A stretch of DNA of 64,000 bases from the NCBI RefSeq assembly GCF_016903815.1, contig NZ_CP069973.1; one strand, given 5' to 3'. The translations under genes were made by a program, and so were the position numbers. The notes under the pieces are model-generated. The model worked only from the letters and a program-made list of their open reading frames with translations, had not been told where the DNA came from and ran no database searches. Each line of letters begins with the position of its first letter. The stretch's first letter is position 1. This DNA is from Escherichia coli (lineage in GTDB: Bacteria > Pseudomonadota > Gammaproteobacteria > Enterobacterales > Enterobacteriaceae). Below, piece after piece: positions 5,106-48,392 of the stretch.

Positions 5106-5428
5106 TTTTTCCAGAGGCGGTCGAACTCCGCCTTCGCAAAATAAGCGGAAGCCTGGCGAAGGATATCGTTACTGCGGCGCAGTTCACGATTTTCACGTTC
5201 CAGCTCTTTCAGACGCTGACGTTCAGCGCTGGTGAGCCCACCATCACCGCCCCCGGTATCCCGCTCATGCTGGCGAACCCAGACACGCAGAGTCTCCGGC
5301 GTACAGCCAATCTTTGGAGCAATGGAACAAATTGCCGCCCACTGTGAGTCATATTCATCCTGACTTTCCAGAACCATACGAATCGCCCGCTGACGGACTT
5401 CGGGGGAAAAACGAGTATTTTTAGTCAT
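5102..5428 (-). CDS. IS629-type transposase OrfA (helix-turn-helix)
   Basis: 108-aa [26 protein letters not shown]...; IS3-family orfA, overlaps orfB for programmed frameshift. Confidence 0.9.
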
Positions 5429-29284: not shown

Positions 29285-30127
29285 ATGTCTGAAATCACAG
29301 CCCCCCGTCCGGAAGTGGTCAACGGGCATACGGACGTTATCTGCTCAACCAGTATCCGCCACATTCTGGCTGTACGAAAGAGTACACTGCTGCAAATCGA
29401 CACACTTATCCGGCAACTGGCTGAAATATCAGCAATGACAGAAAGTATTGGCGGTAAAGCCGCCCCGGGCTGGGCCATGAAACAGGATTTTCGCTACGGC
29501 TGCTGGCTGATGGAGAAACCGGAAACCGCAATGAAAGCCATCACACGCAATCTCGATCGCGAAATCTGGCGTGACCTGATGCAACGTTCAGGGATGCTTT
29601 CCTTAATGGATGCACAGGCCCGTGATACATGGTACCGGTCACTGGAGTACGATAATTTTCCGGAAATCAGTGAAGCGAACATTCTGATCACATTTGAACA
29701 ACTACACCAGAATAAGGATGAGGTGTTTGAGCGAGGGGTGATCAACGTCTTCAGGGGACTGAGCTGGAATTACAAAACCAATTGCCCCTGCAAATTTGGC
29801 AGTAAAATTATCGTCAACAACCTGGTGAGGTGGGACCGGTGGGGGTTTCATCTTATCACCGGGCAACAGACTGACCGACTCGTCGACCTGGAAAGAATGC
29901 TACATCTGTTCAGCGGCAAACCGATCCCCGACAACCGGGAAAACATCACTATTCGTCTGGATGGTCACATCCAGTCCGTTCAGGGTAAAGAGCGCTATGA
30001 AGACGAGATGTTCATCATTAAATACTTTAAGAAGGGATCTGCACACATCACTTTCAAAAGGCTGGAACTGATTGACAGAATTAACGATATAATAGCCAAG
30101 TACTTTCCTTCTGTGCTCTCAGCCTGA
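29285..30127 (+). CDS. DUF4942-domain protein
   Basis: 280-aa ORF; last gene before the pheV 3'-end repeat, the usual position of DUF4942 genes. Confidence 0.6.
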   Translation: MSEITAPRPEVVNGHTDVICSTSIRHILAVRKSTLLQIDTLIRQLAEISAMTESIGGKAAPGWAMKQDFRYGCWLMEKPETAMKAITRNLDREIWRDLMQRSGMLSLMDAQARDTWYRSLEYDNFPEISEANILITFEQLHQNKDEVFERGVINVFRGLSWNYKTNCPCKFGSKIIVNNLVRWDRWGFHLITGQQTDRLVDLERMLHLFSGKPIPDNRENITIRLDGHIQSVQGKERYEDEMFIIKYFKKGSAHITFKRLELIDRINDIIAKYFPSVLSA

Positions 30128-30237
30128 TCCCGAGTGTGATTCCCTTTCGATATCAAAAGGGACTGCGGGTATAATTGAGGGTACATTTTTAATCAAACCA
30201 AATAAATTATATTAATATCAATATGATAAAAGAAATT

Positions 30238-30259
30238 TTCGATTCCGAGTCCGGCACCA
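30238..30259 (+). repeat. Partial tRNA-Phe 3' end (TTCGATTCCGAGTCCGGCACCA), island-boundary att-type direct repeat
   Basis: Matches the 3' end of E. coli tRNA-Phe (GGTTCGATTCCGAGTCCGGGCACCA) with one G missing; no complete tRNA upstream. Confidence 0.75.
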
Positions 30260-30274
30260 CTAATTCTTAAGAAC

Positions 30275-30296
30275 CCGCCCACAAGGCGGGTTTTTG
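30275..30296 (+). terminator. Rho-independent terminator hairpin (CCCGCC-ACAA-GGCGGG + T-run) downstream of the tRNA remnant
   Basis: Perfect 6-bp stem, 4-nt loop, TTTTT; seen directly. Confidence 0.7.
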
Positions 30297-30429
30297 CTTT
30301 TGGATCTTTATATAAAATAAACTTGGGAGCATAACGCCATCAGGTCTTAAACACTCCCGAATCATCAATAAACATCCCCCGTTAACAAAACACAGTTCAG
30401 TTCACATAACATCCCTGTTATCCCACACA

Positions 30430-30649
30430 TATCTGCTGGCCGAACGACGCCAGTGCGCGTACGGAGGCAAGAGCAGCCCTGCACATGGCAGCGCTTGTGG
30501 TAACCTGGTTTAATCCGGTGATAAAGGCGTTTTACATGCATCTGCCAGCAGCCGGAAAAACCAAAAAAGTGGCGCTGGTTGACTGTATGCGTAAATTGCT
30601 GACCATCCTGAACGCAATGCTCAGAAAAAACGAAGAGTGAAATGAATCG
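30430..30649 (+). pseudogene. IS110-family transposase C-terminal remnant
   Basis: Translation ...AALVVTWFNPVIKAFYMHLPAAGKTKKVALVDCMRKLLTILNAMLRKNEE* matches the conserved IS110-family C-terminus; no upstream catalytic domain. Confidence 0.6.
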
Positions 30650-30659
30650 TAGCATCATG

Positions 30660-31450
30660 TTGCTCCATAATTTTTACGTTCAAGACAGTTGATTATCGGC
30701 GCATATGACTCAAAAAGAGCCTGATGATTGCCTCTTTTCCATAGGCTCTTTCTCTGAAGTGAAGGAAGGCCCGGAAGAAAGCACTCGCTGGCATACGTGA
30801 CTCCAGCTCAACCGGAGATAATCACCATTGTTATTTTTCTATTTAATAATAATCTCCTGAAAAATAGATATAGCAAAAATACAATCCGGCCAGATTTAAT
30901 TCCGCATTCATTACCAGAAATAATCAACACCACAACTATCATATCATTCAATAGTCACCGCTAAAATTTTATTATTTTCCTCTTCTTTACATGGAAATTG
31001 TCAACCTGTTTATTATGCCGCACTTAAATAGTTAATCACAAAACAACATCACCATTATTTGCGTGTTTTATTTATTAATAACATAGTCATACGTTCTTTT
31101 TTTACAAGGAAATAATCAATTGATAAATTGTTTTTGGTCTTAATAGTCAAGTAGGAAACATTTTAATAAATGATAAAAATCCTAAATTCCTTGTTCATAA
31201 TGTAGGGGTGTGTTAAATAGGTGGGCAAAATTTGGTTCCCCTTCTCGCCTGTAATATTGCAGCATCTTCGCACCTCCATGAGACATTGCGACTTAATAAG
31301 AAGGTGATAAGTCCTGCATATAAGCATGGACTGACCATGGTTTTATATTCATTAAAAATTTTGTTACAACCCATTGATTTAGCATAAATAAATTATAGTG
31401 GGTTCGGGTTAGTTGTGACTGTGGCATTATTTCCGTGCAAAGGAGCTGAT
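30660..31450 (+). promoter_or_regulatory. AT-rich kps region 1 promoter/leader region upstream of kpsF
   Basis: ~790 bp AT-rich non-coding DNA upstream of kpsF; exact promoter elements not resolved. Confidence 0.35.
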
Positions 31451-32434
31451 ATGTCTGAAAGACATTTACCTGATGACCAGAGCAGTACTATCGATCCATA
31501 TCTAATTACCTCTGTTCGCCAGACTCTGGCAGAACAAGGCGCAGCATTACAAAACTTGTCTAAACAACTGGATTCCGGGCAGTACCAGCGTGTCCTTAAT
31601 TTGATAATGAACTGTAAAGGTCACGTTATTCTTTCGGGAATGGGTAAATCAGGGCATGTCGGTCGTAAAATGTCAGCGACGCTGGCCTCTACGGGTACGC
31701 CTAGTTTCTTTATTCATCCTGCAGAAGCTTTCCATGGCGATCTGGGCATGATTACGCCTTACGATCTTCTGATCCTTATTTCTGCCAGCGGTGAAACGGA
31801 TGAAATCCTCAAGCTAGTTCCTTCACTGAAAAATTTCGGCAACCGAATTATCGCCATTACCAATAATGGAAATTCCACGCTGGCGAAAAATGCTGATGCC
31901 GTGCTGGAACTCCACATGGCGAATGAAACCTGCCCGAATAATCTTGCACCAACAACGTCTACCACGCTGACGATGGCGATCGGCGATGCGCTGGCGATTG
32001 CCATGATCCACCAACGCAAATTTATGCCGAATGATTTTGCGCGCTATCACCCGGGCGGTTCATTAGGTCGTCGCCTGCTGACCCGCGTTGCTGATGTCAT
32101 GCAGCATGATGTTCCTGCGGTACAGCTGGATGCGTCATTTAAAACCGTGATTCAACGTATCACCAGCGGATGCCAGGGAATGGTGATGGTAGAAGACGCA
32201 GAAGGTGGGCTAGCGGGCATTATCACCGACGGTGACCTGCGTCGCTTTATGGAAAAAGAGGATTCTCTGACATCCGCCACGGCTGCGCAGATGATGACAC
32301 GTGAACCGCTGACGCTACCGGAAGACACCATGATCATTGAAGCGGAAGAAAAAATGCAAAAGCACCGCGTCTCAACGTTATTGGTGACCAACAAGGCAAA
32401 TAAAGTCACTGGCCTTGTGCGCATTTTCGACTAA
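31451..32434 (+). CDS. kpsF: Arabinose-5-phosphate isomerase KpsF (SIS + CBS domains)
   Basis: Starts MSERHLPDDQ...; SIS motif GMGKSGHVGRK; first gene of kps region 1. Confidence 0.9.
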   Translation: MSERHLPDDQSSTIDPYLITSVRQTLAEQGAALQNLSKQLDSGQYQRVLNLIMNCKGHVILSGMGKSGHVGRKMSATLASTGTPSFFIHPAEAFHGDLGMITPYDLLILISASGETDEILKLVPSLKNFGNRIIAITNNGNSTLAKNADAVLELHMANETCPNNLAPTTSTTLTMAIGDALAIAMIHQRKFMPNDFARYHPGGSLGRRLLTRVADVMQHDVPAVQLDASFKTVIQRITSGCQGMVMVEDAEGGLAGIITDGDLRRFMEKEDSLTSATAAQMMTREPLTLPEDTMIIEAEEKMQKHRVSTLLVTNKANKVTGLVRIFD

Positions 32435-32505
32435 TTAAGCAACGGGGTGCGAGAGGTTAGTCTCTCATTGAGTTTGCGCCCCACTGAAACTTTGATAATC
32501 GTTAC

Positions 32506-33654
32506 ATGTTGATAAAAGTGAAGTCTGCCGTATCCTGGATGCGTGCTCGTCTGTCTGCCATCTCACTGGCAGATATCCAAAAACACCTGGCGAAAATCAT
32601 CATTCTGGCACCGATGGCGGTGCTGCTGATCTATCTGGCTATCTTCAGCCAGCCTCGCTATATGAGCGAGTCGAAAGTCGCCATTAAACGCTCGGATGAT
32701 TTAAACAGCGGCAGCCTGAATTTTGGTCTGCTTCTGGGTGCCTCTAACCCCAGTTCCGCAGAAGATGCGTTGTATCTGAAAGAGTACATCAACTCGCCGG
32801 ATATGCTGGCGGCGCTGGATAAGCAACTAAATTTTCGTGAAGCGTTTAGCCACAGCGGGCTCGATTTTCTTAATCATCTTAGCAAGGATGAAACCGCAGA
32901 AGGCTTCCTGAAGTACTACAAGGACCGTATCAACGTCTCGTATGACGATAAAACCGGATTACTGAATATTCAGACGCAGGGCTTTAGCCCGGAATTTGCG
33001 CTTAAGTTTAACCAGACCGTGCTGAAAGAGTCAGAGCGCTTTATCAATGAGATGTCACATCGCATCGCGCGTGACCAGCTTGCCTTTGCAGAAACGGAGA
33101 TGGAAAAGGCACGCCAGCGTCTGGACGCCAGCAAAGCGGAATTGCTCTCTTATCAAGACAACAACAACGTTCTGGATCCACAGGCACAGGCACAGGCGGC
33201 GAGCACGTTAGTGAATACGCTGATGGGCCAGAAGATCCAGATGGAAGCGGATCTGCGTAACTTGCTGACGTATCTGCGTGAGGACGCCCCGCAAGTAGTG
33301 AGTGCGCGTAATGCGATTCAGTCATTGCAGGCACAAATCGATGAAGAACAAAGCAAAATCACAGCGCCGCAGGGTGACAAGCTAAACCGTATGGCGGTGG
33401 ATTTTGAAGAAATCAAATCAAAAGTAGAGTTCAACACCGAGCTGTACAAACTGACCCTGACCTCCATTGAAAAGACCCGTGTAGAAGCGGCTCGTAAGCT
33501 CAAGGTGCTGTCAGTGATCAGTTCGCCACAGTTGCCGCAGGAATCGTCTTTTCCAAATATCCCTTATTTGATCGCCTGCTGGTTACTGGTGTGCTGCCTG
33601 CTGTTCGGCACCCTGAAACTGTTGCTGGCTGTTATTGAAGATCACCGAGACTAA
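32506..33654 (+). CDS. kpsE: Capsule export inner-membrane protein KpsE
   Basis: 382-aa ORF with coiled-coil and terminal transmembrane segments; region 1 position. Confidence 0.9.
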   Translation: MLIKVKSAVSWMRARLSAISLADIQKHLAKIIILAPMAVLLIYLAIFSQPRYMSESKVAIKRSDDLNSGSLNFGLLLGASNPSSAEDALYLKEYINSPDMLAALDKQLNFREAFSHSGLDFLNHLSKDETAEGFLKYYKDRINVSYDDKTGLLNIQTQGFSPEFALKFNQTVLKESERFINEMSHRIARDQLAFAETEMEKARQRLDASKAELLSYQDNNNVLDPQAQAQAASTLVNTLMGQKIQMEADLRNLLTYLREDAPQVVSARNAIQSLQAQIDEEQSKITAPQGDKLNRMAVDFEEIKSKVEFNTELYKLTLTSIEKTRVEAARKLKVLSVISSPQLPQESSFPNIPYLIACWLLVCCLLFGTLKLLLAVIEDHRD

Positions 33655-33674
33655 CGCTGTCGCTGAATGAGTTT

Positions 33675-35354
33675 GTGATGAAATTATTTAAATCAATTTT
33701 ACTGATTGCCGCCTGTCACGCGGCGCAGGCCAGCGCGGCCATTGATATTAACGCTGACCCAAACCTTACAGGAGCCGCGCCGCTTACCGGTATTCTGAAC
33801 GGGCAACAGTCGGATACGCAAAACATGAGCGGCTTCGACAATACCCCGCCGCCCGCACCGCCGGTGGTAATGAGCCGTATGTTTGGTGCTCAACTTTTCA
33901 ACGGCACCAGCGCGGATAGCGGTGCGACGGTAGGATTCAACCCTGACTATATTCTGAATCCGGGTGATAGCATTCAGGTTCGCTTGTGGGGTGCGTTCAC
34001 CTTTGATGGTGCGTTACAGGTTGATCCCAAAGGTAATATTTTCCTGCCGAACGTTGGTCCGGTGAAAGTTGCTGGCGTCAGTAATAGTCAGCTAAATGCC
34101 CTGGTCACATCCAAAGTGAAGGAAGTATACCAGTCCAACGTCAACGTCTACGCCTCCTTATTACAGGCGCAGCCAGTAAAAGTGTACGTGACCGGATTTG
34201 TGCGTAATCCTGGTCTGTATGGCGGTGTGACGTCTGATTCGTTACTCAATTATCTGATCAAGGCTGGCGGCGTTGATCCAGAGCGCGGAAGTTACGTTGA
34301 TATTGTGGTCAAGCGCGGTAACCGCGTGCGCTCCAACGTCAACCTGTACGACTTCCTGCTGAACGGCAAACTGGGGCTTTCGCAGTTCGCCGATGGTGAC
34401 ACCATCATCGTCGGGCCGCGTCAGCATACTTTCAGCGTTCAGGGCGATGTCTTTAACAGCTACGACTTTGAGTTCCGCGAAAGCAGCATTCCCGTAACGG
34501 AAGCTTTGAGCTGGGCGCGCCCTAAGCCTGGCGCGACTCACATTACGATTATGCGTAAACAGGGGCTACAAAAACGCAGCGAATACTATCCGATCAGTTC
34601 TGCGCCAGGCCGTATGTTGCAAAATGGCGATACCTTAATCGTGAGCACTGACCGCTATGCCGGCACCATTCAGGTGCGGGTTGAAGGCGCACACTCCGGT
34701 GAACATGCCATGGTACTGCCTTATGGTTCCACTATGCGTGCGGTTCTGGAAAAAGTCCGCCCGAACAGCATGTCGCAGATGAACGCGGTTCAGCTTTATC
34801 GCCCATCAGTGGCTCAGCGTCAGAAAGAGATGCTGAATCTCTCGCTGCAAAAGCTGGAGGAAGCCTCACTTTCTGCCCAGTCATCCACCAAAGAAGAAGC
34901 CAGCCTGCGAATGCAGGAAGCACAACTGATCAGCCGCTTTGTGGCGAAAGCACGCACCGTGGTTCCGAAAGGTGAAGTGATCCTCAACGAATCCAATATT
35001 GATTCTGTTCTGCTTGAAGATGGCGACGTCATCAATATTCCGGAGAAAACATCGCTGGTTATGGTTCATGGCGAAGTGCTGTTCCCGAACGCGGTGAGCT
35101 GGCAGAAGGGTATGACCACCGAGGATTACATCGAGAAATGTGGTGGCCTGACGCAAAAATCGGGTAACGCCAGAATTATCGTCATTCGTCAGAACGGTGC
35201 TGCCGTCAACGCGGAAGACGTGGATTCACTCAAGCCGGGCGATGAGATTATGGTTCTACCGAAATATGAATCGAAAAATATTGAAGTTACCCGTGGTATT
35301 TCCACCATCCTCTATCAGCTGGCGGTGGGTGCAAAAGTGATTCTGTCTTTGTAA
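33675..35354 (+). CDS. kpsD: Capsule export periplasmic/outer-membrane protein KpsD
   Basis: 559-aa ORF with signal peptide; region 1 position. Confidence 0.9.
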   Translation: MMKLFKSILLIAACHAAQASAAIDINADPNLTGAAPLTGILNGQQSDTQNMSGFDNTPPPAPPVVMSRMFGAQLFNGTSADSGATVGFNPDYILNPGDSIQVRLWGAFTFDGALQVDPKGNIFLPNVGPVKVAGVSNSQLNALVTSKVKEVYQSNVNVYASLLQAQPVKVYVTGFVRNPGLYGGVTSDSLLNYLIKAGGVDPERGSYVDIVVKRGNRVRSNVNLYDFLLNGKLGLSQFADGDTIIVGPRQHTFSVQGDVFNSYDFEFRESSIPVTEALSWARPKPGATHITIMRKQGLQKRSEYYPISSAPGRMLQNGDTLIVSTDRYAGTIQVRVEGAHSGEHAMVLPYGSTMRAVLEKVRPNSMSQMNAVQLYRPSVAQRQKEMLNLSLQKLEEASLSAQSSTKEEASLRMQEAQLISRFVAKARTVVPKGEVILNESNIDSVLLEDGDVINIPEKTSLVMVHGEVLFPNAVSWQKGMTTEDYIEKCGGLTQKSGNARIIVIRQNGAAVNAEDVDSLKPGDEIMVLPKYESKNIEVTRGISTILYQLAVGAKVILSL

Positions 35355-35363
35355 GGAGTTGAA

Positions 35364-36104
35364 ATGAGCAAAGCTGTTATTGTCATCCCGGCTCGTTATG
35401 GCTCATCGCGTCTGCCGGGTAAGCCGCTACTCGATATTGTCGGCAAACCGATGATCCAGCATGTTTACGAGCGTGCGTTACAGGTGGCGGGCGTCGCAGA
35501 AGTTTGGGTGGCAACAGACGATCAGCGTGTTGAAAAGGCCGTGCAGGCATTTGGCGGGAAAGCCATTATGACGCGCAACGATCATGAATCCGGCACCGAT
35601 CGGCTGGTCGAGGTGATGCATAAAGTCGAGGCAGATATCTACATTAACCTGCAGGGCGACGAACCAATGATTCGCCCGCGGGATGTAGAAACGCTGCTAC
35701 AAGGAATGCGTGATGATCCTGCGTTGCCAGTGGCAACGCTATGCCACGCGATTTCTGCCGAAGAAGCGGCTGAGCCAAGCACGGTAAAAGTGGTGGTAAA
35801 TACCCGCCAGGATGCGCTTTATTTCAGCCGTTCGCCTATTCCGTATCCGCGTAATGCTGAAAAAGCGCGCTACCTGAAACACGTTGGTATTTACGCTTAT
35901 CGTCGCGATGTGCTGCAAAACTACAGCCAGTTACCGGAGTCCATGCCGGAGCAGGCGGAATCACTGGAGCAGCTGCGGTTGATGAGCGCGGGGATCAACA
36001 TCCGCACATTTGAGGTTGCCGCAACCGGTCCGGGCGTCGACACCCCAGCATGCCTGGAAAAAGTGCGCGCCCTGATGGCACAGGAACTGGCTGAAAACGC
36101 ATGA
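35364..36104 (+). CDS. kpsU: CMP-Kdo synthetase KpsU (KdsB paralog)
   Basis: 246-aa [41 protein letters not shown]..., CMP-Kdo synthetase pattern. Confidence 0.92.
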
Positions 36105-38128
36105 TTGGCATTTACTCGCCTGGCATCTGGCGTATTCCGCATCTGGAGAAATTTCTGGCGCAACCGTGCCAGAAACTTTCTCTGCTGCGCCCTGTTCCGC
36201 AAGAAGTTGATGCTATCGCCGTGTGGGGACATCGTCCCAGCGCGGCGAAACCAGTCGCCATCGCCAAAGCAGCGGGAAAACCCGTCATTCGTCTGGAAGA
36301 TGGATTTGTGCGTTCGCTGGATCTTGGCGTCAATGGCGAGCCGCCGCTTTCTCTGGTGGTGGATGATTGTGGCATTTACTACGATGCCAGCAAGCCTTCA
36401 GCACTGGAGAAACTGGTACAGGATAAAGCCGGAAATACAGCTCTGATAAGCCAGGCCAGAGAAGCGATGCACACCATCGTGACCGGGGATTTGTCGAAAT
36501 ATAACCTGGCACCTGCGTTTGTGGCTGATGAGTCAGAACGTTCAGACATCGTTCTGGTTGTCGATCAGACATTTAATGATATGTCAGTGACGTATGGCAA
36601 TGCTGGCCCGCATGAGTTTGCTGCCATGCTGGAAGCCGCGATGGCGGAAAATCCTCAAGCCGAAATTTGGGTGAAGGTGCATCCGGATGTCCTGGAAGGA
36701 AAGAAAACAGGTTATTTCGCTGATCTGTGCGCCACGCAACGAGTACGTTTGATTGCCGAGAATGTCAGCCCGCAGTCGCTGTTGCGACACGTTTCCCGGG
36801 TTTACGTCGTGACCTCCCAATATGGCTTTGAAGCCTTGCTGGCAGGAAAACCAGTAACATGCTTCGGCCAGCCCTGGTATGCAGGTTGGGGCTTAACCGA
36901 CGATCGTCATCCACAGTCCGCTTTGTTATCTGCCCGACGCGGTTCTGCCACGCTGGAGGAACTTTTTGCCGCTGCATACCTGCGTTACTGTCGCTATATC
37001 GATCTGCAAACGGGAGAAGTAAGCGATCTATTTACCGTGCTGCAATGGCTGCAATTACAACGTCGACATCTGCAACAGCGTAATGGTTATTTATGGGCGC
37101 CAGGCTTAACGCTGTGGAAGTCAGCGATCCTGAAACCTTTCTTGCAAACGGCAACAAACCGGCTGAGTTTTTCACGTCGTTGTACTGCGGCGAGCGCCTG
37201 CGTGGTATGGGGTGTAAAGGGAGAACAGCAATGGCGAGCCGAAGCGCAACGAAAATCACTGCCGTTATGGCGAATGGAAGATGGTTTTCTGCGTTCATCC
37301 GGACTTGGCTCTGACCTTTTGCCGCCGCTATCGTTGGTCCTGGATAAACGCGGGATCTACTATGACGCCACGCGCCCCAGCGACCTGGAAGTGCTGCTTA
37401 ATCACAGCCAGTTAACACTGGCGCAGCAGATGCGAGCTGAGAAGTTGCGGCAACGGGTGGTTGAAAGCAAACTGAGCAAATACAACCTGGGGGCCGATTT
37501 CTCTCTGCCTGCCGAAGCCCAAGATAAAAAAATCATCCTGGTGCCGGGTCAGGTAGAAGACGATGCCTCTATTAAAACAGGCACTGTCTCGATTAAGAGC
37601 AACCTTGAGTTATTACGCACAGTACGCGAGCGTAATCCGCACGCCTACATTGTTTATAAACCGCACCCGGATGTACTGGTGGGGAATCGCAAGGGCGATA
37701 TTCCGGCAGAACAGATTGCTGAACTTGCTGATTATCAGGCACTGGACGCCGATATTATTCAATGCATTCAGCGCGCAGATGAAGTGCATACCATGACGTC
37801 GCTGTCGGGGTTTGAAGCGTTATTACATGGCAAGCACGTACATTGTTACGGCCTGCCCTTCTATGCCGGTTGGGGTTTAACCGCTGATGAACATCGCTGC
37901 CCGCGTCGCGAGCGAAAATTAACGTTAGCGGATTTGATCTATCAGGCGCTGATTGTTTATCCAACCTATATCCACCCAACACGGCTACAACCTATTACGG
38001 TAGAAGAAGCTGCGGAATATTTAATCAAGACGCCGCGCAAGCCGATGTTTATTACCCGAAAAAAAGCGGGGCGAGTCATACGCTATTACCGCAAATTAAT
38101 TATGTTCTGCAAGGTCAGATTTGGCTAA
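36101..38128 (+). CDS. kpsC: Capsule Kdo-linker transferase KpsC
   Basis: 675-aa ORF with internal duplication (two similar halves); region 1 position. Confidence 0.9.
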
Positions 38129-38162
38129 ACAATTTCATGGTTGACTATTACGCAAATTATTT

Positions 38163-39395
38163 ATGCAAGACAACGCACTAACCATTTTATTATCGGGTAA
38201 AAAATATCTGCTATTGCAGGGACCGATGGGACCTTTTTTCAATGACGTCGCCGAATGGTTAGAGTCATTAGGCCGTAACGCTGTGAATGTTGTCTTCAAC
38301 GGCGGGGATCGTTTTTACTGCCGCCATCGACAATACCTGGCTTACTACCAAACGCCGAAAGAGTTTCCCGGTTGGCTGCGAGATCTCCAACGACAATATG
38401 ACTTTGATACCATCCTCTGTTTTGGTGACTGCCGCCCATTGCACAAAGAAGCAAAACGCTGGGCAAAGTCGAAAGGGATCCGCTTTCTGGCATTTGAAGA
38501 AGGATATTTACGCCCGCAATTTATAACCGTTGAAGAAGGCGGAGTGAACGCATATTCATCGCTACCGCGCGATCCGGATTTTTATCGTAAGTTGCCAGAT
38601 ATGCCTGCGCCGCACGTTGAGAACTTAAAACCTTCAACGATGAAACGTATAGGTCATGCGATGTGGTATTACCTGATGGGCTGGCATTACCGTCATGAGT
38701 TCCCTCGCTACCGCCACCACAAATCATTTTCCCCCTGGTATGAGGCTCGTTGCTGGGTTCGTGCATACTGGCGCAAACAACTTTACAAGGTAACACAGCG
38801 TAAGGTATTACCGAGGTTAATGAACGAGTTGGATCAACGTTATTATCTTGCCGTTTTGCAGGTATATAACGATAGCCAGATTCGTAACCACAGCAGTTAT
38901 AACGATGTACGTGACTATATTAATGAAGTCATGTACTCATTTTCGCGTAAAGCGCCGAAAGAAAGTTATTTGGTGATCAAACATCATCCGATGGATCGTG
39001 GTCACAGACTCTATCGACCATTAATTAAGCGGTTAAGTAAGGAATATGGCTTAGGTGAGCGAGTCATATACGTGCACGATCTCCCAATGCCGGAATTATT
39101 ACGCCACGCAAAAGCAGTAGTGACAATTAACAGTACGGCAGGGATCTCTGCGCTGATTCATAACAAACCACTCAAAGTGATGGGCAATGCCCTGTACGAC
39201 ATCAAGGGATTGACGTATCAAGGGCATTTGCACCAGTTCTGGCAGGCCGATTTTAAACCGGATATGAAACTGTTTAAGAAGTTTCGGGGGTATTTATTGG
39301 TGAAGACGCAGGTTAATGGGGTTTATTATGGGGAGATGGTTTTTAACAAGATAAAACTGGATGAATATTTTCAGAGCGTGTCGTGTCAAGTATGA
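38163..39395 (+). CDS. kpsS: Capsule Kdo-linker transferase KpsS
   Basis: 410-aa ORF following kpsC. Confidence 0.9.
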   Translation: MQDNALTILLSGKKYLLLQGPMGPFFNDVAEWLESLGRNAVNVVFNGGDRFYCRHRQYLAYYQTPKEFPGWLRDLQRQYDFDTILCFGDCRPLHKEAKRWAKSKGIRFLAFEEGYLRPQFITVEEGGVNAYSSLPRDPDFYRKLPDMPAPHVENLKPSTMKRIGHAMWYYLMGWHYRHEFPRYRHHKSFSPWYEARCWVRAYWRKQLYKVTQRKVLPRLMNELDQRYYLAVLQVYNDSQIRNHSSYNDVRDYINEVMYSFSRKAPKESYLVIKHHPMDRGHRLYRPLIKRLSKEYGLGERVIYVHDLPMPELLRHAKAVVTINSTAGISALIHNKPLKVMGNALYDIKGLTYQGHLHQFWQADFKPDMKLFKKFRGYLLVKTQVNGVYYGEMVFNKIKLDEYFQSVSCQV

Positions 39396-39656
39396 AATAT
39401 AATAATAAACAACACAAAACAATTATTAAAATGATGCCATTTTAATGTTACAAATATAAACAACACCCATCCACAAGCCAAGTTAAAAATCCAAGATATA
39501 ATTTTGTTATTATCTATAAATAATACAAGTATAATCTATACGCTAATCAATTATTTTTGTAGAAAATTTATTTTATTAGTATTTACACGAAAATATGACG
39601 AAGTTATTAGCATTACACATTTATAATCATCAAATATGAAAATATTGTTACTATCA

Positions 39657-40655
39657 TCACTCCTCAATAAGTTTATCTAAAGGAATATAATATAATTGAG
39701 CAAATCTTTTTTTATGATCCCCAAGAGCAAACATGATAACCAATGATTTTGATTTGCGATCAATAGCTAAACCTTCAGGTTCCCAATGTTTTTCTTTGCC
39801 ACTGTTAAGAGAATCTTTTTTCCCTACTGTTACATTATTAAACTTTCTTACAAGCTCTCCTTTTAACGTGTAAATATAGATTCTTTTGTTTTCTCTATTC
39901 CCTCCCCCACTCAACAAATATATATATTTATTATCAGCGGTAATGGCTTGCAATACATAATTATCATTGGTTAAACCTGCATCGATAAACCATTCTATAT
40001 TTTGTTCTGATGAAATATCACTCTCGATTCGAAAGTTAACTTCTTCACTATTATAGACTCTTAATAAGTCTCTACCATTCAACTTACTTCTTACTATTAA
40101 ATATTTAGCATCTAAGGTTAAAACAGGCATTGTACTAACACGAGTATTATATGGTCTATCGAATATTTTTATAATTTTCATCTCATAAGGAAAAGAAAAA
40201 TCATTGTATTTAAAATATGTAACAAACCATCCTTTGTTAGCAAAGGCATTTCCCGCAGACGTTATTACCCCCCCCTCAAAAGGATCAAACCCAATTCCTT
40301 GATGCCCAATAAATTCAGTGGGTTTTTGAAATGACAATGCTACAGCTTTTCTTTTTTTTGTTGTTAATGAGAATCTATTTATAACTCCTTTTTCGGGTTT
40401 CCCTGTGGTATGTAAAGTATAAATATCAGAACTAAATCTATCAATCACGACTCCTTGAACAATATTATTTTTACCCTCGCCATCCCTATATAATCTCACT
40501 TTTCTCGTAACAATATCATCATTTAAATGAGAAATAAAATTAGCCAAAGGTATATTTGTTGCAGATGATGAATTATGCAACAACATTAATATCAAAAAAA
40601 ATAAATTTATATACTTCAAACACATTGAAAATTTTTCATATGAACCGATTAGCAT
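39657..40655 (-). CDS. kps region 2 hypothetical protein (AT-rich, function unknown)
   Basis: 332-aa ORF in low-GC serotype-specific region. Confidence 0.5.
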   Translation of the reverse strand: MLIGSYEKFSMCLKYINLFFLILMLLHNSSSATNIPLANFISHLNDDIVTRKVRLYRDGEGKNNIVQGVVIDRFSSDIYTLHTTGKPEKGVINRFSLTTKKRKAVALSFQKPTEFIGHQGIGFDPFEGGVITSAGNAFANKGWFVTYFKYNDFSFPYEMKIIKIFDRPYNTRVSTMPVLTLDAKYLIVRSKLNGRDLLRVYNSEEVNFRIESDISSEQNIEWFIDAGLTNDNYVLQAITADNKYIYLLSGGGNRENKRIYIYTLKGELVRKFNNVTVGKKDSLNSGKEKHWEPEGLAIDRKSKSLVIMFALGDHKKRFAQLYYIPLDKLIEE

Positions 40656-41037
40656 AATATTAGATTATACCAAATAAACGCACTAACCAAACTTGAATTT
40701 AAAAACACAGTTCACAACTTAAGAAGCACTATTTTAAACACATTGATAAAACAATGAAAATCCCGCAAACACTCTAATTATTAAAATACATAAAAATAAA
40801 AATCGTTATAAAAAAAGTTATAATCCATCAAAAACAAAAAAATGCACATAAAATATTTCTGTTTAAGAAGATGTTATAAATACAATATTTAATTCATCAA
40901 ATGTTTTTCTATTGGCAATTTACTAAACTGTATTTACAGTATAAAAAATACTAAATACATTTCCACATCAGAGGTGATCACAAAACAACCACCTCTTGCA
41001 GTCATATTTTTTACATCTGCATGGTTTTTAATATTAA

Positions 41038-42204
41038 TTATGAAAAATAAGTTTCATACCTTTTTTTATATGTTTCACTTTCAGGGGATAGACTATATGC
41101 CATTTGGGCCATTTTTTTTGCATCTTCCAATAACCCTTTCCTTTCATATATTAGAGATAGATTATAATACGAGCCAGCAGATGAAGGCATTAAAGATATA
41201 TATTCATAGAAATGCTGTATTGCCTGATCATATTTTTTTGACATCCTTAATGACTTTGCCAAATTATATTTAGCTGTTGTAAAATGTGGCGAAATACCGG
41301 CAACAAAAGCAAACTGCTCTACAGCTAAAGTATAGTTCTTGAGCTCCATATTTACTAAAGCAGAAATAAATATAGCAGGTTCGAGTAAAGGTTCAGCCAA
41401 CAAAGCTTCCCTGATTAAAGATTGAGCAGTGGAAAAATCTTTGTTGACAAATGCCTGGTAAGACAGGAATATATTTTTTGATAAGATTTTATTATGGCAA
41501 AGATTATTAATCTCTTTAATTTCGGGAAGTGTGTTATTTTCCACAAAAAAGGTTATTATATTAGGCATTCCATATCTTTTATCTATAAACCGCCCCACAC
41601 CATGTGTTACTCCTCGAACGGAATACGCTTTAACATTTTTAAGATCTGAAATCCTACTCAATGAAAGTAAATCAGGAAAATCCATTTCCCCACTTAATGC
41701 TGTGATTCTACATTTAGAGTTTTTTATAATTGGGCGTAGATTCTTATATATAATTTTTGTCTTTTTAGGAATTCTTTTAGCACTACGGCTCAAGGGATAT
41801 TTTAGTACCGTGTCAAAGCTAAAGGCTAACACACGACAATCCAGAAGAGCGCCAAATAATGAAGCTGCATATCCTCCCATACTGACGCCTATTGTTATAA
41901 TCTCGTCACAACCTAGTTGTTCAGAAATATATTTTATTTTTTCTATTGTTTCTGATATTGAAGAACTAAACCCTGGAATACTATCTTGGTACCATTCATT
42001 TTTACCATTGTTAATTAACAAAATATTATATGGCAGTTCATCTGCTGATTTCCAAAAATCAAAGCGGCCATCTTTTTTATCTGTACCAGAAAAAAAGACG
42101 AGCAATTTATTAGACGTTTTTTTAATCAGTCTATGAGAAACCCCATGCTCATTTATATTTAATTGTAAATTCATATTTTTATTATCTAAAGTCATGATAT
42201 ACAT
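41038..42204 (-). CDS. kps region 2 protein: alpha/beta-hydrolase-like N-terminal part with C-terminal TPR-like repeats
   Basis: 388-aa ORF; GVSMGGYAAS nucleophile-elbow-like motif; helical repeats at C-terminus. Confidence 0.5.
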   Translation of the reverse strand: MYIMTLDNKNMNLQLNINEHGVSHRLIKKTSNKLLVFFSGTDKKDGRFDFWKSADELPYNILLINNGKNEWYQDSIPGFSSSISETIEKIKYISEQLGCDEIITIGVSMGGYAASLFGALLDCRVLAFSFDTVLKYPLSRSAKRIPKKTKIIYKNLRPIIKNSKCRITALSGEMDFPDLLSLSRISDLKNVKAYSVRGVTHGVGRFIDKRYGMPNIITFFVENNTLPEIKEINNLCHNKILSKNIFLSYQAFVNKDFSTAQSLIREALLAEPLLEPAIFISALVNMELKNYTLAVEQFAFVAGISPHFTTAKYNLAKSLRMSKKYDQAIQHFYEYISLMPSSAGSYYNLSLIYERKGLLEDAKKMAQMAYSLSPESETYKKRYETYFS

Positions 42205-42232
42205 CCATTTTTTTAAAAATTGATAAGTAACT

Positions 42233-43423
42233 TTACACTTTTAACTTTCTAGAAAATAAATTTTTCGCTTTTCTGTAAAATGGTAGTTTTTTATTCTTAA
42301 TGGATTTTTCAAGTTTATTCAGCTTTGGCTTACATGTTCGAAGCTCTTGCACAGTCTCTCTAACATAGAGCTGCGTTTGTGTTAGTGGCGGAATTAACCC
42401 ATTATATAGTTTTTTTATATAGTTAATACATAGCTGTGAAGCATTTACCTCTTTATCTACGTAAAAAAGACTTTCACGAAGATTTGATGCTCTTAATACA
42501 ATATCTTGACAGTTATTGAGACAGTGAATTATGGATGGTTCAAAATCAGAAAGACTAGTGCAAACATAACCTATCTCGTCTCTATGTTTAAACTCTAAAG
42601 ATGTAAGATCAAATTTTTGAATACCTATTTTGTTTTTCAATCCAGCTTGATATAGAAGAATAGGTTTTTCTGCATACATACCGTCAAATATAGCCCCAGA
42701 AAAATCACTTATAATCAAATCTGCCGCACAAAGCAATTTTAATTGGTCCGCAGAACCATCGTAAACATGTTTTAAGTTTGCTTTATTTGCAGAATCTACC
42801 CATTCAGGTATTTTTGCATCATTATTGTGATGCATCTTTAATATAAGATTATATTTTGATTGTAACCGAGATATTGTATCCAGAAGTTCAAAATATGAAC
42901 CCAACTCCCCCCAAGTAGGCATGTAAAGCAATGTCTTTTTGGTTATATCTAATTTTAATTCTTTATAAAGCTCTTCTCTATTTGAGTACTTTTGTTTGTA
43001 CTCTAACCAATTATCAAACTTTGGATTTCCAACAGGATAGGATGGCGCATAGTGAGAAACAATATTAGATGAATAGTCACCATACATTAAATTCATGTCA
43101 GCAAGAGAACGCCATTCACCATAATTATGGCGCTCCTTTGCTAAACCATATTGTATTGAAACTAATTTACTATTTTTAATTTTCTCAATACCAGGAAAAG
43201 CCGACTGAAAAAGTAAGATATCATGAGTCCCATCAATAACGGGAACATCATGGGGCTCAATATACACTACATTCCATGATTTGTTATTAATTAACTTCTT
43301 GGGAAACAAGGCAAGGTTATTGTTTTTCCTAATAATAAAAATAGTTGGTTTTTCTAATTTTAATGCAATAGATTTGAATTGAATCAACTGGAATGGATTC
43401 CAGATTATAAATCCTACTTTCAT
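42233..43423 (-). CDS. CDP-glycerol glycerophosphotransferase (TagF/TagB-like), capsule polymerase candidate
   Basis: 396-aa ORF with TagF-like C-terminal region (LLYMPTWGE..., ISDFSGAIFDG). Confidence 0.65.
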   Translation of the reverse strand: MKVGFIIWNPFQLIQFKSIALKLEKPTIFIIRKNNNLALFPKKLINNKSWNVVYIEPHDVPVIDGTHDILLFQSAFPGIEKIKNSKLVSIQYGLAKERHNYGEWRSLADMNLMYGDYSSNIVSHYAPSYPVGNPKFDNWLEYKQKYSNREELYKELKLDITKKTLLYMPTWGELGSYFELLDTISRLQSKYNLILKMHHNNDAKIPEWVDSANKANLKHVYDGSADQLKLLCAADLIISDFSGAIFDGMYAEKPILLYQAGLKNKIGIQKFDLTSLEFKHRDEIGYVCTSLSDFEPSIIHCLNNCQDIVLRASNLRESLFYVDKEVNASQLCINYIKKLYNGLIPPLTQTQLYVRETVQELRTCKPKLNKLEKSIKNKKLPFYRKAKNLFSRKLKV

Positions 43424-43429
43424 ATTTAT

Positions 43430-44689
43430 TCACTTTGTAATTTGTTCAAAAATTATTCTTTCTTTATCCCATTCATGCAGGTGGGTTCCCACTTCATTCT
43501 CATCAACAAAATAATGAGTATGAAAATCTTTATTGTTATGGAAATGAGTAAAACCGAACAAACATTCTTTGGGTATTTTACCAACTATAGAGTAAACCCA
43601 ATAGGCAACTGCTAGTCCTGTACTTGGTAGACCATCTAGTTTTTTTATAAGTGATTTGTACACATGATTTGGTATAACCGTATATTCCATTTCCATTAAT
43701 TGTGGAGCAAGAAAATATTTGTTTGCATCTCTTCTTTTTATTGTGAAATTATTCGCCGCAAAAATAACAAGTCTATTGTTTTTGAGATTATTATTGCTTA
43801 CTTCTTTATTTGCCACTCTAACCCATATATCCTGCTTTGTACCATAATCATCCGGATAGTCCAGGGTATAATTGTTTATTCTAATCACTGTTTTTTTAGA
43901 ATCAATCAACGCTCCATGACCGGTATTTATTTCTGTTGGTGCATTCCCAACAATACAAAAACTACCAGCGGAATTTCTAATTGATTTTATAAACTCATTT
44001 CGTGATTTTAAGATGTGAGAATATTGTTCACTTCCTCTTTGTATATATGGATCATTAAAAATCTTATTCTTTTTAATCTTGTTAAAAACATAAGGACTGC
44101 TTGTATATTTCAACAGAAACTTTTTCCCTATTTGCTTAATAATTTCATTAGCTTTAGCATCCTTATCATTTTGATATAACATTATTGCCAAGCGTAATTT
44201 TTGACTTTTATTTAAATTTCTCAATGATACATCAGAGCAAAGTCGTGATATTATTCTTTTAAGCCTGTCTGATTTATAGCCATATTTTTGTGAAATAAAA
44301 TCAGAATACCTAAGATTAATAGTTATTTCTTTATTTCTGTAATGCGCTGAAATAAAATGTTTTTCTGTAATATCGCTATAGTTACGATATCTTAGTAACC
44401 AATCAGCAATTGAGTAATGAATGTAACGTGATTTTACTTTATTGAATAAGTAAAAAGGTACTATCCCTACATTATCATGCGTTTTTTTTATCTTTATAAA
44501 CAGCAAAGAATTAATAAAATGAAAAAAATGAACTTTACGTATAAACCAAGAACCTTGTAACTTCACCACATTATCTTCACCTATAAAAATGAGTAATCTC
44601 ATTATTAGCTTGTCATAAATACTATATCTAGAAAAATAAACATCTTGCGCTTTTTTTATGAGTATTTTCTTTATTGACATATTATGCAA
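43430..44689 (-). CDS. Putative capsule glycosyltransferase
   Basis: 419-aa ORF in region 2 between the TagF-like and TagD-like genes; family not resolved. Confidence 0.45.
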   Translation of the reverse strand: MHNMSIKKILIKKAQDVYFSRYSIYDKLIMRLLIFIGEDNVVKLQGSWFIRKVHFFHFINSLLFIKIKKTHDNVGIVPFYLFNKVKSRYIHYSIADWLLRYRNYSDITEKHFISAHYRNKEITINLRYSDFISQKYGYKSDRLKRIISRLCSDVSLRNLNKSQKLRLAIMLYQNDKDAKANEIIKQIGKKFLLKYTSSPYVFNKIKKNKIFNDPYIQRGSEQYSHILKSRNEFIKSIRNSAGSFCIVGNAPTEINTGHGALIDSKKTVIRINNYTLDYPDDYGTKQDIWVRVANKEVSNNNLKNNRLVIFAANNFTIKRRDANKYFLAPQLMEMEYTVIPNHVYKSLIKKLDGLPSTGLAVAYWVYSIVGKIPKECLFGFTHFHNNKDFHTHYFVDENEVGTHLHEWDKERIIFEQITK

Positions 44690-44782
44690 GTTTCTTTTGT
44701 TAGTTCGCTCTAAGCCTCAACAGACATAGGTGTTCATTCCCTTTTCAAGGGGATGAACACCTACCTGAACATAAACATTAAT

Positions 44783-45190
44783 TTAACTGTATTTTTTAAT
44801 CTCCGTAATAAGTTTTGTAGTAGAAATGCCTTCCGTCCTTGGTAAATAAATAACCTCGCATAACTTTTTAAACATATCAAACTTTCCTTCCCAATCATTA
44901 CCCATAATAAGAATGTTAGCTTTATATTTTTTTATATACTCACCTTTTAATTCAAGTGACTCCTCAAGAAATACGTCATCAACATATTGTAGAGAACGAA
45001 TAATTTCACATCGCTCATTTTCTGGGTAAACTGGGTATCTTTGCTTTTTAGAGAAACTTAATGCATCGGATGACACGCCAACAATTAATCGATCACCATA
45101 TTTCTTTGCTCTTTCTAAAATTTTAATGTGGCCAATATGTAAAACATCAAATGTTCCAAAGGTTATGACTGTACGCATTGTATATTCCAA
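44783..45190 (-). CDS. Glycerol-3-phosphate cytidylyltransferase (TagD-like)
   Basis: 135-aa ORF with nucleotidyltransferase motif FGTFDVLHIGH. Confidence 0.85.
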   Translation of the reverse strand: MEYTMRTVITFGTFDVLHIGHIKILERAKKYGDRLIVGVSSDALSFSKKQRYPVYPENERCEIIRSLQYVDDVFLEESLELKGEYIKKYKANILIMGNDWEGKFDMFKKLCEVIYLPRTEGISTTKLITEIKKYS

Positions 45191-45347
45191 TTTATATAAA
45201 GAGAGATTTTTTGATAACGGAAATCAAGATTTAGCAAAATAAATACCATCGCCATCAACCTCACCTCATAAAGTCAGTAAATACAAATGAGAACAAGGTG
45301 ATTTCGTGATAATAATTGCATGAATTACACAACTTGAATGAAGATAA

Positions 45348-46022
45348 TCAATATGTATTAATTGTTATGTTGTTTTTATACTCCTCTATCCCCTCCTGAA
45401 CATCCTCATGAAAACTAACCGCATTATCATCCATAAACACAATGGCCACATCGCAAAACTCTTTCAATGAATTCAAACTATGTGAAACCATTAAAAAACT
45501 AGATTCTTTATGCCTTTCTTTAAACAATTGAGCGCACTTTTCTTTAAACCTGGCATCACCGACCGCCGTTACTTCATCGACGATATAATAATCAAACTTA
45601 AATGCCATGCTTAAACCAAAGCCCAGGCGAGATCGCATACCTGATGAGTAAGTTTTAATCGGCATATCAAAGTACTTACCGAGTTCGGCAAATTCTTCGA
45701 CAAACTCAATTTTCTCTTTCAGTTCTTCTTGCTTCGCGTATAACCGCGCAACAAATTTTACGTTTTCGCGTCCGGTTAAACTTCCCTGAAATCCACCTGC
45801 GAGGCCGACTGGCCATGATATTGTTTTATTAGTGATGATCTTTCCACTGTCGGGGCGGTCAATGCCGCCAATCATTCTCAGTAACGTTGATTTACCCGCT
45901 CCGTTGCGACCAATAAAGGCAACACTTTTTCCTGAAGGGATTTCAATATTTAAATCCTTAAAGACATAGTGTCGACCCGTTGGCGTGCGATAGGACTTCG
46001 TCAAATTCTCAATCTTAATCAT
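45348..46022 (-). CDS. kpsT: Capsule export ABC transporter ATP-binding protein KpsT
   Basis: 224-aa ORF MIKIENLTKSYRTPTGRHYVFK... with Walker A GRNGAGKST. Confidence 0.92.
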   Translation of the reverse strand: MIKIENLTKSYRTPTGRHYVFKDLNIEIPSGKSVAFIGRNGAGKSTLLRMIGGIDRPDSGKIITNKTISWPVGLAGGFQGSLTGRENVKFVARLYAKQEELKEKIEFVEEFAELGKYFDMPIKTYSSGMRSRLGFGLSMAFKFDYYIVDEVTAVGDARFKEKCAQLFKERHKESSFLMVSHSLNSLKEFCDVAIVFMDDNAVSFHEDVQEGIEEYKNNITINTY

Positions 46023-46795
46023 GATGTCAGCATTGCCTCTTCACGCGTTCGGTATAACGCCAGACCGATGAACAGGGTGACCAGAGTGAACATTGCCAGG
46101 TAGTTCAGACTTACGCCTTCGCTGATATAGCCAGGCATAACAGCCTCGCGGCTTAGCTCCACCACATGTACTAATGGGTTCCAGAGTAGATATGACCAGT
46201 ATTGCTTTGGAATCGAGTGTAGAGGGAACATGATGCAGGAGATGAAATACAGCGGCTTAAGCAGTATCGGCAGAACCTTTTGCATTTCGGGGAAGGTTTT
46301 ACCAACGACCATGAATATTAAGCCGACGCCACATGAAAGAATGATCAGCAGGCTCCAGGTAGCCACAAGTTGTAAAAAATTTGTTATCTCGAAATATTCG
46401 CCTGCCATCCAGACAATGAGCATAAGCAGAATATAAACAGCAACGTAAATCAGTGTCTCAAGCAGTGCGCGTGCAATGATCGTATCGATGGGTTTTACTG
46501 GTCGATAATTAAACAACCCCTGATTCGCTTCAATAGCACCTACAGAACGATTGCTGATACTGCTAAAGATAAAAAAGGGAATCAGGCCATTAAGTAAAAA
46601 CACCGGGAATGAGATGTCTGGCATCGTGCGGTGCATAATGTAACCAAAAATGCCCAACAGTATCAGCAAATGCGCAGAGGGTTCGAGAATCGCCCACAAA
46701 TATCCCAGACGGAACTTACCAAAGCGTGTTCGTATTTCTCGTAGAAATAATGCCTCTACGGTGACTTTCTGGACTTCAAATCCACTTCTTGCCAT
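46019..46795 (-). CDS. kpsM: Capsule export ABC transporter permease KpsM
   Basis: KpsM sequence begins MARSGFEVQKVT at codon 48 of the 305-aa ORF; upstream in-frame part is leader. Confidence 0.88.
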   Translation of the reverse strand: MARSGFEVQKVTVEALFLREIRTRFGKFRLGYLWAILEPSAHLLILLGIFGYIMHRTMPDISFPVFLLNGLIPFFIFSSISNRSVGAIEANQGLFNYRPVKPIDTIIARALLETLIYVAVYILLMLIVWMAGEYFEITNFLQLVATWSLLIILSCGVGLIFMVVGKTFPEMQKVLPILLKPLYFISCIMFPLHSIPKQYWSYLLWNPLVHVVELSREAVMPGYISEGVSLNYLAMFTLVTLFIGLALYRTREEAMLTS

Positions 46796-46823
46796 TTGAT
46801 GATGTGATCCTAATCTCTTCAGG

Positions 46824-46835
46824 TACGCTACCGCC
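46824..46835 (-). promoter_or_regulatory. ops (operon polarity suppressor) element GGCGGTAGCGTA in kpsM leader (RfaH-dependent antitermination)
   Basis: Minus-strand GGCGGTAGCGTA is the reverse complement of plus-strand tacgctaccgcc, just upstream of the kpsM start. Confidence 0.7.
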
Positions 46836-47855
46836 CCTGGCTTAACAGCTACCAATACACTGGAGGTAATACTTGACTTGTTTGTAACTGGATAAAATTC
46901 ATTCGGACGGCTTGACCTTTTAATAGCCAAAAACAATTTCAGCAGAAATTATTTCCGCAGGGATAAATAGATCTATTTCCGTCTCGTTTCTTCTAATCCA
47001 TTCTTCAGGCATGAATGTATTCGGTCTTCTGGTAATTTCAGAAAACTGGCCGTTTTAGAATGCAGAGTTAATTTCTCAGGAAATTATTTTTTGTGATTAC
47101 TGTTAACTACTTGATTATAATATCCCCTATGGATTTTATGCGTAACAATACCTACAATCTGTTTCAAACCAGAACGCACGCGATTGATTACCAATAAATT
47201 GTTCACCGAGAAACTATTTCCCTATTTAAAATTCACTCGTGTACTTCTTATTTATATCTACAGCCCCCTCTTTACAGCCATATTTGTGATTCATATCACA
47301 TTTAAATGGTGTTATTTAAGTCGCATCAATAATCCCGAAGGTAATTATTTTCGTCGATTAAAATATACATCTTGATTATTTTGTGTGTTTATTTTAACCA
47401 GTGTTACAACCAACACCATCCCTCAGTAGATATACCTGAGCAGACATTTCTTAAAATCAACGAATAGTTTCACTGGAAATTATTATGCTTATTTGAAATT
47501 CCCTTTCTGATTATCTCCAGGAATTTTACTAATTTCCAAGCTACACAAAATACAGATCACACAAGAATTATCCTATATGTTTTGGCCTATCAATTGTTAC
47601 TCAATGATTTATTGCAACTATTAATAATCATAATGTGTCAAAACACTTAAGCAACTTTACAGTCTGAGAAAGGTGTCGATTAACGAAGGCTACATGGTGA
47701 AAAACAGGTTCCTTCAGTGTTACCGAATATTCCGTGGTGGTCTGGAGGGAGATAATTCTTGCTACATCGAAACTCAGCCCGGTAAGCGGGTTTGACAGTT
47801 CCGCACTCACCATTGGGCTAAGGGTTATCAGGTGGGGTTAAGGAAATGGCAATAC

Positions 47856-48392
47856 CTACCCCCGTCCAAATTCCAGTCGCTGCACATTCACCATCCCAGG
47901 CTTCTCACCCGCACTGACATCAATTTGTGTCACCCGCAGCGCATATTTTTCATCCAGTGCGTTTAACCATTTCAGCAGGTCATTAAACACCACAGGTTCT
48001 ATCCAGACCTGAATATTCTCCCCACGCTCGGCTATTCGCTTGATGACCACAGAGTGCACGGAAGCACTATCGCTGATGACCCGCGATACCTGCGCAGGCG
48101 TTGTTGTGGCAGATTTTCGCGCTGCAATAATATCCGGCGCGGCGCTCTTCAGTCGCGCGTTCATCGCCACCAGCTGCTGCAACATCGTCTCCTGTTGCTC
48201 AATCCGTTCGCTCAACGGCTGCCAGATGAGAACGTAATATCCGGCGCTAAACAGGAACACTACCGCTGCCAGTAACATGCCTTTTTCACGCGGAGAACGC
48301 CCCGCCAGGTGTTGTGTCAGCCAGTGTTCGCCACGGCTTAACTGGCGTTCACGCCATTGCTGAAAATAGTGAATAAATTTATCGCGTAACAT
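47856..48392 (-). CDS. gspM: Type II secretion protein GspM (YghD)
   Basis: 178-aa ORF, last gene of gsp operon. Confidence 0.85.
   Translation of the reverse strand: MLRDKFIHYFQQWRERQLSRGEHWLTQHLAGRSPREKGMLLAAVVFLFSAGYYVLIWQPLSERIEQQETMLQQLVAMNARLKSAAPDIIAARKSATTTPAQVSRVISDSASVHSVVIKRIAERGENIQVWIEPVVFNDLLKWLNALDEKYALRVTQIDVSAGEKPGMVNVQRLEFGRG

Follow-up and report, generated by a model that had tools for sequence, protein, structure and literature searches.

In the pheV region of extra-intestinal type E. coli, a piece of an insertion sequence lies between a genomic island and the genes of the group 2 capsule, and its position raises the question whether it marks the way in which the capsule locus was joined to the tRNA site. 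We addressed this in a stretch of 64,000 nucleotides (the window), for which an earlier note had pointed to a decayed IS110-type transposase. Over the 701 bp around this remnant, strain 222 and others match the window with 100% identity. According to the RefSeq annotation of strain 222, the gene order is the right part of the island (encoding an antirestriction protein, RadC, a YeeU/CbtA toxin-antitoxin system and a DUF4942 protein), an IS110 pseudogene, kpsFEDUCS, the serotype-specific region 2, kpsTM, yghD/gsp and sslE. We confirm here that the feature in front of kpsF is the real 3' end of an IS110-family insertion sequence. An intact 322-residue IS110-family transposase from ECONIH5 (WP_028016388.1), compared with positions 29900-31000 by tblastn, gave a single strong match, in which residues 253-322 align with 30458-30667 (54/70 identities, 77%, E=1e-31). 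A transposase match at this very place is far beyond chance. The NCBIfam model NF033542 (transpos_IS110) matches the fragment over profile positions 281-342 of 343 (E=2.1e-8), and the Pfam model Transposase_20 (PF02371) matches weakly over positions 60-86 of 87 (E=0.013, 16.3 bits against a cut-off of 21.3); both scores are below the curated cut-offs, as expected because the query is a fragment. For the DNA of 30469-30691, the identity amounts to 86.1% with the ECONIH5 copy and to 87.8% with the copy in CAVP761, which is pseudogenised. The IS110 assignment is thus upheld by the tblastn and NCBIfam results, and the database comparison returned transposase matches instead of a lack of similarity.

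The pseudogene is located on the forward strand at 30458-30670 (tblastn, NCBIfam, PGAP) and comprises codons 253-322, the last 70 of the 322-codon transposase. It contains two in-frame stops, a TGA at 30638-30640 at the position of W313 of the relative and a TAG at 30650-30652 at Y317, in front of the original TAA stop at 30668-30670. Together with the right end of the element that follows, the whole remnant covers 30458-30691. The earlier note had put it at 30430-30649 and counted about 50 residues; the place and the C-terminal nature of the piece stand, while the limits had to be corrected and the count reflects only an open reading frame within the pseudogene (30485-30640). PGAP/RefSeq labels 30458-30640 as 'IS110 family transposase, incomplete, missing N-terminus'. 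Upstream of about 30458-30468, neither nucleotide nor protein comparison (permissive tblastn, codon-by-codon comparison) revealed transposase-like sequence, and the left side of the remnant is, as far as these comparisons indicate, an abrupt truncation. The open reading frame of 51 amino acids at 30485-30640 (forward strand, from a mechanical ORF list) starts with ATG and is predicted by gene callers in many assemblies, and one might see in it a domesticated small protein. We regard this as highly improbable: the frame is a piece of a larger one that is cut by stops, the nearest GGAGG lies 17 nt 5' of the ATG and is not a well-spaced ribosome-binding site, substitutions among the copies are mostly non-synonymous, and in the ST131 strain 18044 the frame is interrupted by an IS66 element.

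On the right side, the element is preserved to its terminus. The complete 21-bp non-coding right end (TTTTTACGTTCAAGACAGTTG, 30671-30691, forward strand), recognised by its identity to the right ends of the relatives, agrees with the CAVP761 copy at 21/21 positions and with the ECONIH5 copy at 20/21. The termini of the relatives were set by comparison of an occupied with an empty site and by two independent contexts. The ECONIH5 copy lies within an IS3-family element, and the uninterrupted target is known in another strain; the empty site reads ...CCTTC-CT-GATATTGC... and the occupied site ...CCTTC-CT-[TGTATCTTG...ACAGTTG]-CT-GATATTGC. The CAVP761 copy is found in another context and has the same ends and cores. 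By comparison of empty and occupied site, the parent element measures about 1,166 bp: the left end takes up 174 bp, the transposase gene 969 bp (322 codons) and the right end 21 bp, and each junction has a CT core. The terminus of the remnant coincides exactly with the end placed by the empty-site comparison and is free of terminal inverted repeats; the right boundary 30691/30692 is thereby an authentic junction of element and target. The bases behind it are AT (30692-30693), where the intact copies have the CT core, and the junction was either mutated or slightly rearranged.

The closest relatives, the ECONIH5 element (L004:1560-2725) and the pseudogenised CAVP761 copy (L002), which adjoins a zinc-ribbon gene, share 86-88% DNA and 77% protein identity with the window over the surviving 223-234 bp, and their right ends are equal in length (21 bp) and near-identical in sequence. 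In contrast to the window, which keeps the last fifth only, they are full length (~1,166 bp), with a whole transposase gene and the 174-bp left end, and their CT core corresponds to AT in the window. The ECONIH5 protein carries both Pfam domains, DEDD_Tnp_IS110 and Transposase_20. IS110-group elements carry their bridge RNA 5' of tnp, IS1111-group elements 3' of it (PMC12288879). By family description, the layout of the presumed parent resembles that of IS621 and other RNA-guided elements of the IS110 group (PMC12288879), with a long left end before tnp, a very short right end, no terminal inverted repeats, a CT core duplicated at both junctions and site-specific insertion. Unlike in these elements, neither a bridge RNA nor the DEDD domain nor any catalytic region has survived in the window. 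ISEc32, an IS110-like element of E. coli plasmids, belongs to the same family, but its nucleotide identity is only ~75% across 173 bp that code for the C-terminal part; it is more distant than the unnamed chromosomal relatives and is a different element. A protein search for a closer intact relative that might hint at a donor returned mainly the fragment itself and partial proteins, with identities up to about 85%.

Two further observations concern the lineage of the parent element. The 174-bp left ends of the two relatives (ECONIH5 L004:1560-1733; CAVP761 L002:3057-3231) are conserved better than the transposase gene itself, and their folding gives a long hairpin with interruptions, two sequences being too few to prove a structure; no Rfam 15 family matches the left end. 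It contains ACAGTTG, the terminal heptamer of the right end, and this may be the donor-binding guide of a bridge RNA. Furthermore, right-end-only pieces of 87-89 bp of the same IS lineage are present in another island near ykgL (L013:5001-5089 and L014:5001-5087). They are independent, unannotated and ~93% identical to window 30607-30695, and right-end stubs of this IS family seem to have been left behind repeatedly.

Several parts of the parent are missing from the remnant. For the N-terminal DEDD/RuvC-like domain (PF01548), tblastn gave no match to residues 1-252 between 29900 and 31000. A 19-residue match to the transposase N-terminus at 30117-30173 (tblastn, E=0.006 in a tiny search space) falls within the island, where the DUF4942 gene ends and still to the left of the pheV repeat described below, and was judged to be chance. 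Pfam detects only the tail of PF02371 on the fragment; the C-terminal Transposase_20 domain is incomplete, and the fragment begins at residue 253, 3' of the DSG motif (around residue 240 in the relative). The serine of this conserved DSG region is what we take, from structural work on IS621, to be the catalytic residue. The 174-bp left end of the relatives has no homology anywhere in the 64-kb window. Having lost its catalytic domains along with the left end and the region for the guide (bridge) RNA, the remnant is immobile. We rejected a seek-RNA of the IS1111 type 3' of the transposase: the intact relatives have only 21 bp behind the stop codon and a 174-bp left end, Rfam gave no match over the remnant, and RNA folding downstream of the remnant is nothing unusual (z=-0.19). 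The right ends of IS110-family elements supply the -35 half of a circle-junction promoter (PMC12288879). An outward hybrid promoter built on this half was rejected likewise, since a scan of the right end and its neighbourhood (30660-30750) detected nothing promoter-like and TTGATT at 30689-94 has, by eye, no -10 partner at a distance of 16-18 nt.

Whether the remnant is a seam depends on what lies to its left. The last gene of the upstream island encodes DUF4942 and ends at 30127. At 30238-30259 (forward strand) there is a 22-nt repeat of the 3' end of the pheV tRNA-Phe gene, which the homology limits identify as the right attachment-site copy of the island; it has one G fewer than K-12 pheV. 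It is exactly at this repeat that the window becomes homologous to K-12 and to E1654, a strain without the island, and no tRNA gene was called in the window. The intrinsic terminator of pheV follows at 30268-30296 (forward strand, terminator scan). K-12 DNA (L009:2501-2571) aligns with window 30238-30307 and the shared sequence stops at 30307, where the kps-specific segment (30308-47856) begins; K-12 identity resumes at 47857, in yghD. The left edge of the kps-specific segment is a 150-bp orphan spacer (30308-30457) that is defined by its occurrence at this single locus. It has no similarity to transposase or decayed IS sequence in permissive tblastn and codon-by-codon comparison, and the idea that it is more decayed IS sequence was rejected on these comparisons. 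Searches of phages gave no match to the spacer, and in a plasmid collection one record only was found, a 29-kb 'Klebsiella oxytoca plasmid', which appears E. coli-derived. In K-12, 101 bp between the pheV terminator and yghD (L009:2572-2672) have no counterpart in the kps-positive window; the kps segment therefore replaces a stretch of DNA and is not a simple insertion.

This anatomy contradicts the proposal that the remnant sits at the junction of two accessory segments: the seams are the pheV repeat and 30307/30308, and the remnant begins 150 bp further in. The accompanying suggestion, that it hints at how the capsule locus was joined to the tRNA site, is not supported either, as a partner piece is missing, the orientation is wrong and the remnant is found in E1654. 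That the IS linked the kps segment with the intergenic region of pheV and yghD would fit the distance of only 150 bp from the left breakpoint of the kps-specific segment, the age of the remnant, which is as old as the kps locus itself in E. coli, and the fact that integration of circular DNA is possible for IS110-family recombinases. We nevertheless consider it very unlikely, because the K-12 breakpoint at 30307/30308 is not an IS end and the truncated side adjoins 150 bp of orphan DNA and not backbone. Moreover, the intact right end faces kps, so that kps lies outside the element and is not its cargo, and other pieces of this IS were found nowhere in the 64-kb window, including the far kps end at ~47857. 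A composite or cargo structure with a second IS fragment at that far end was rejected for the same lack of a second piece in the window.

A transposase at this position has been noted before. In CFT073, c3684 was described between the toxin-antitoxin system and kps region 1, and a role in the recombination of capsule genes was speculated (PMC12488582, 2025). By its described position c3684 is the same feature, an equivalence taken from the description and not from sequence; it was not recognised there as a truncated, inactive IS110 fragment that is set off from the island by the pheV repeat. In the same paper, toxin-antitoxin system, transposase and kps are regarded as a single co-acquired island; the remnant would then be the right-hand end of a pheV pathogenicity island that brought in the toxin-antitoxin and the capsule genes together. 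Its place between DUF4942 and kpsF agrees with such a reading. However, the pheV repeat and ~50 further bp of K-12-shared DNA with the terminator (30238-30307 in all) separate the island from the remnant. In addition, E1654 has pheV, the remnant and kpsF and lacks the island, and in strains with an AbiEii-type island homology to the window is found only from 30237 on, so that different islands adjoin the same repeat. These strains indicate that the remnant is independent of the upstream island; its association with the kps flank is constant, whatever island lies 5'. Both the pheV repeat and the strains that lack an island speak against co-acquisition, and the repeat and the K-12-shared terminator between island and remnant point to the toxin-antitoxin island and the capsule genes as separate acquisitions. 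On this comparative evidence we would call acquisition as one island refuted, with practically no probability left to it.

How widespread the remnant is was determined in 5,426 complete E. coli RefSeq genomes, a clinically biased set. The PR1 upstream region (30692-31450) is present in 1,698 of these genomes. The remnant was found with at least 95% identity in 1,669 records and with at least 80% coverage in 1,672 genomes, as a single copy and in about 98% (~1,670/1,698) of the genomes that carry PR1. The spacer (query 30300-30475) occurs in 1,631 E. coli genomes, in single copy and at this locus only, and its junction with the remnant is contiguous in three sampled loci with full remnant; the total of such genomes is 1,554. 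These three loci (3/3) have the truncation point and both stops in common. The comparison of the junction across group 2 kps loci that the earlier note had proposed thus shows a near-universal remnant with the same truncation point and stops in the sampled loci, and this shared state argues for a single origin of the group 2 kps loci in E. coli. Differences among the sampled loci (five non-synonymous, one synonymous, one non-coding) have the pattern of neutral drift, and the sequence diversity of the remnant is similar to that of its flanks. Outside E. coli, exact-pattern scans of limited sensitivity found no copy in 100,044 species-representative genomes, among which the E. coli representative is one without kps.

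Several strains carry a damaged version of this region. In strain 18044, a complete IS66-family element (tnpA/B/C; L010:796-3501) is inserted inside the remnant at 30508-30515, with an 8-bp target duplication (GTTTAATC). In another strain (L012), ISEc10 is inserted at a position corresponding to window 30889-30896, ~330 bp upstream of PR1-1, and an insertion so near to the promoter might have an effect on capsule expression in K100-type strains. In a third strain, an IS5-associated deletion has removed everything 5' of 31028, including the remnant, and left kpsF intact. These variants indicate that the remnant is dispensable for maintenance of the locus.

The near-universal presence in front of a promoter also raises the question of a regulatory function. 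PR1 is located 225 bp upstream of kpsF, with an IHF site (TTACAACCCATTG) at +140 (PMC5738388). The IHF motif is found at window position 31364 and kpsF starts at 31451 (PGAP), from which we infer the +1 of PR1-1 at about 31226; the remnant accordingly spans -768 to -535. The region from 30692 to 31225 (forward strand; PR1 geometry, GC profile) is the upstream region of the kps region 1 promoter and would originally have flanked the inserted IS on its right side. The sequence turns AT-rich at about 30800, with a GC content of 25-33% over 30800-31300, while the remnant forms a block of ~50% GC; its position in front of the AT-rich promoter of kps region 1, at a distance of 535-768 bp 5' of PR1-1, is therefore upheld. 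Mapped H-NS and SlyA sites extend from -224 to +32 and the IHF site lies at +140 (PMC8960920), and the remnant is outside all of them. The standard PR1 reporter covers -646 to +227, and its authors mention possible cis-acting sequences past -646 (Jia et al., 2017). This commonly used boundary falls within the remnant, which is of practical importance for the design of PR1 reporters.

It is conceivable that PR1 has co-opted the remnant as a distal cis-regulatory element or an insulator, which would act as an H-NS boundary or as a buffer against read-through from pheV and the island. Its retention in about 98% of the PR1-bearing genomes, the suggestion of regulatory sequences past -646 by Jia et al. 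and the transition from a ~50% GC block to an AT-rich, H-NS-bound region would be in line with such a role. Yet the spacer is kept equally well, so that linkage suffices, the natural IS66 and ISEc10 insertions and the IS5-associated deletion are tolerated, neither promoter nor terminator nor structured RNA was detected in the remnant, and its diversity does not stand out from that of the flanks. Co-option is very unlikely in our view. The specific version, that the ~50% GC block at -768 to -535 sets the chromosomal-context repression of PR1-1, for example as boundary of an H-NS filament, is a long shot, which, if true, would explain the effect of sequences beyond -646 (Jia et al., 2017).

The explanation we favour, with a probability of roughly 0.85, is that we see here an inert fossil, left by an insertion sequence of the IS110 group (RNA-guided, DEDD-type) and carried along with the group 2 capsule locus of E. 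coli. An active element would have inserted site-specifically ~535 bp 5' of the PR1-1 start site, either in the ancestor that the group 2 kps loci of E. coli have in common or in the donor of these loci, and the junction 30691/30692 would be the trace of this event. A later deletion presumably took the left ~940 bp, including guide RNA and catalytic domains, plus some DNA to the left of it, and fused codon ~253 to the present 150-bp spacer. Since then, the fragment would have drifted neutrally, kept only by its linkage to kps and probably devoid of present function, a view based on the sequence comparisons above. Linkage would explain its retention, given that the flanking spacer is kept equally well. 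The order of insertion, deletion and arrival next to pheV is what we infer from the anatomy.

The remnant is already known as an annotation of the NCBI pipeline in well over 1,000 genomes and by the mention of a transposase there in CFT073 in 2025; our literature search found no paper linking IS110 to kpsF. What can be added is its convenience as a marker: it identifies the left flank in nearly all group 2 capsule loci of E. coli. As a by-product, the acquisition history is corrected: the toxin-antitoxin island and the capsule genes were apparently acquired separately, and the IS fragment is not their seam.

Some minor observations concern the surrounding region. In a record labelled Klebsiella oxytoca 'plasmid 4' of 29 kb (NZ_LR890315.1, L005), the end of an E. 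coli-type island is present together with the pheV repeat, the remnant and kps region 1, at 95-99% identity and with E. coli protein accessions; this represents either contamination or mis-binning, or a genuine transfer of kps into Klebsiella. The pheV gene of E1654 (L003:2947-3022) has a one-G deletion in the 3' acceptor strand (GTCCGGGCACCA to GTCCGGCACCA), the same as in the attR repeat of the window, and PGAP calls a 75-nt tRNA there, while ARAGORN places the gene shifted by one base. The loss of this G could be damage from island excision or a homopolymer sequencing error. Finally, Rfam detects two elements in the window at gathering level, both on the reverse strand. An ALIL pseudoknot, the frameshift signal of the IS3 family, lies inside the island (5031-5147), and a JUMPstart element (46824-46862) is located upstream of kpsM, where we would expect the RfaH/ops region of PR3.
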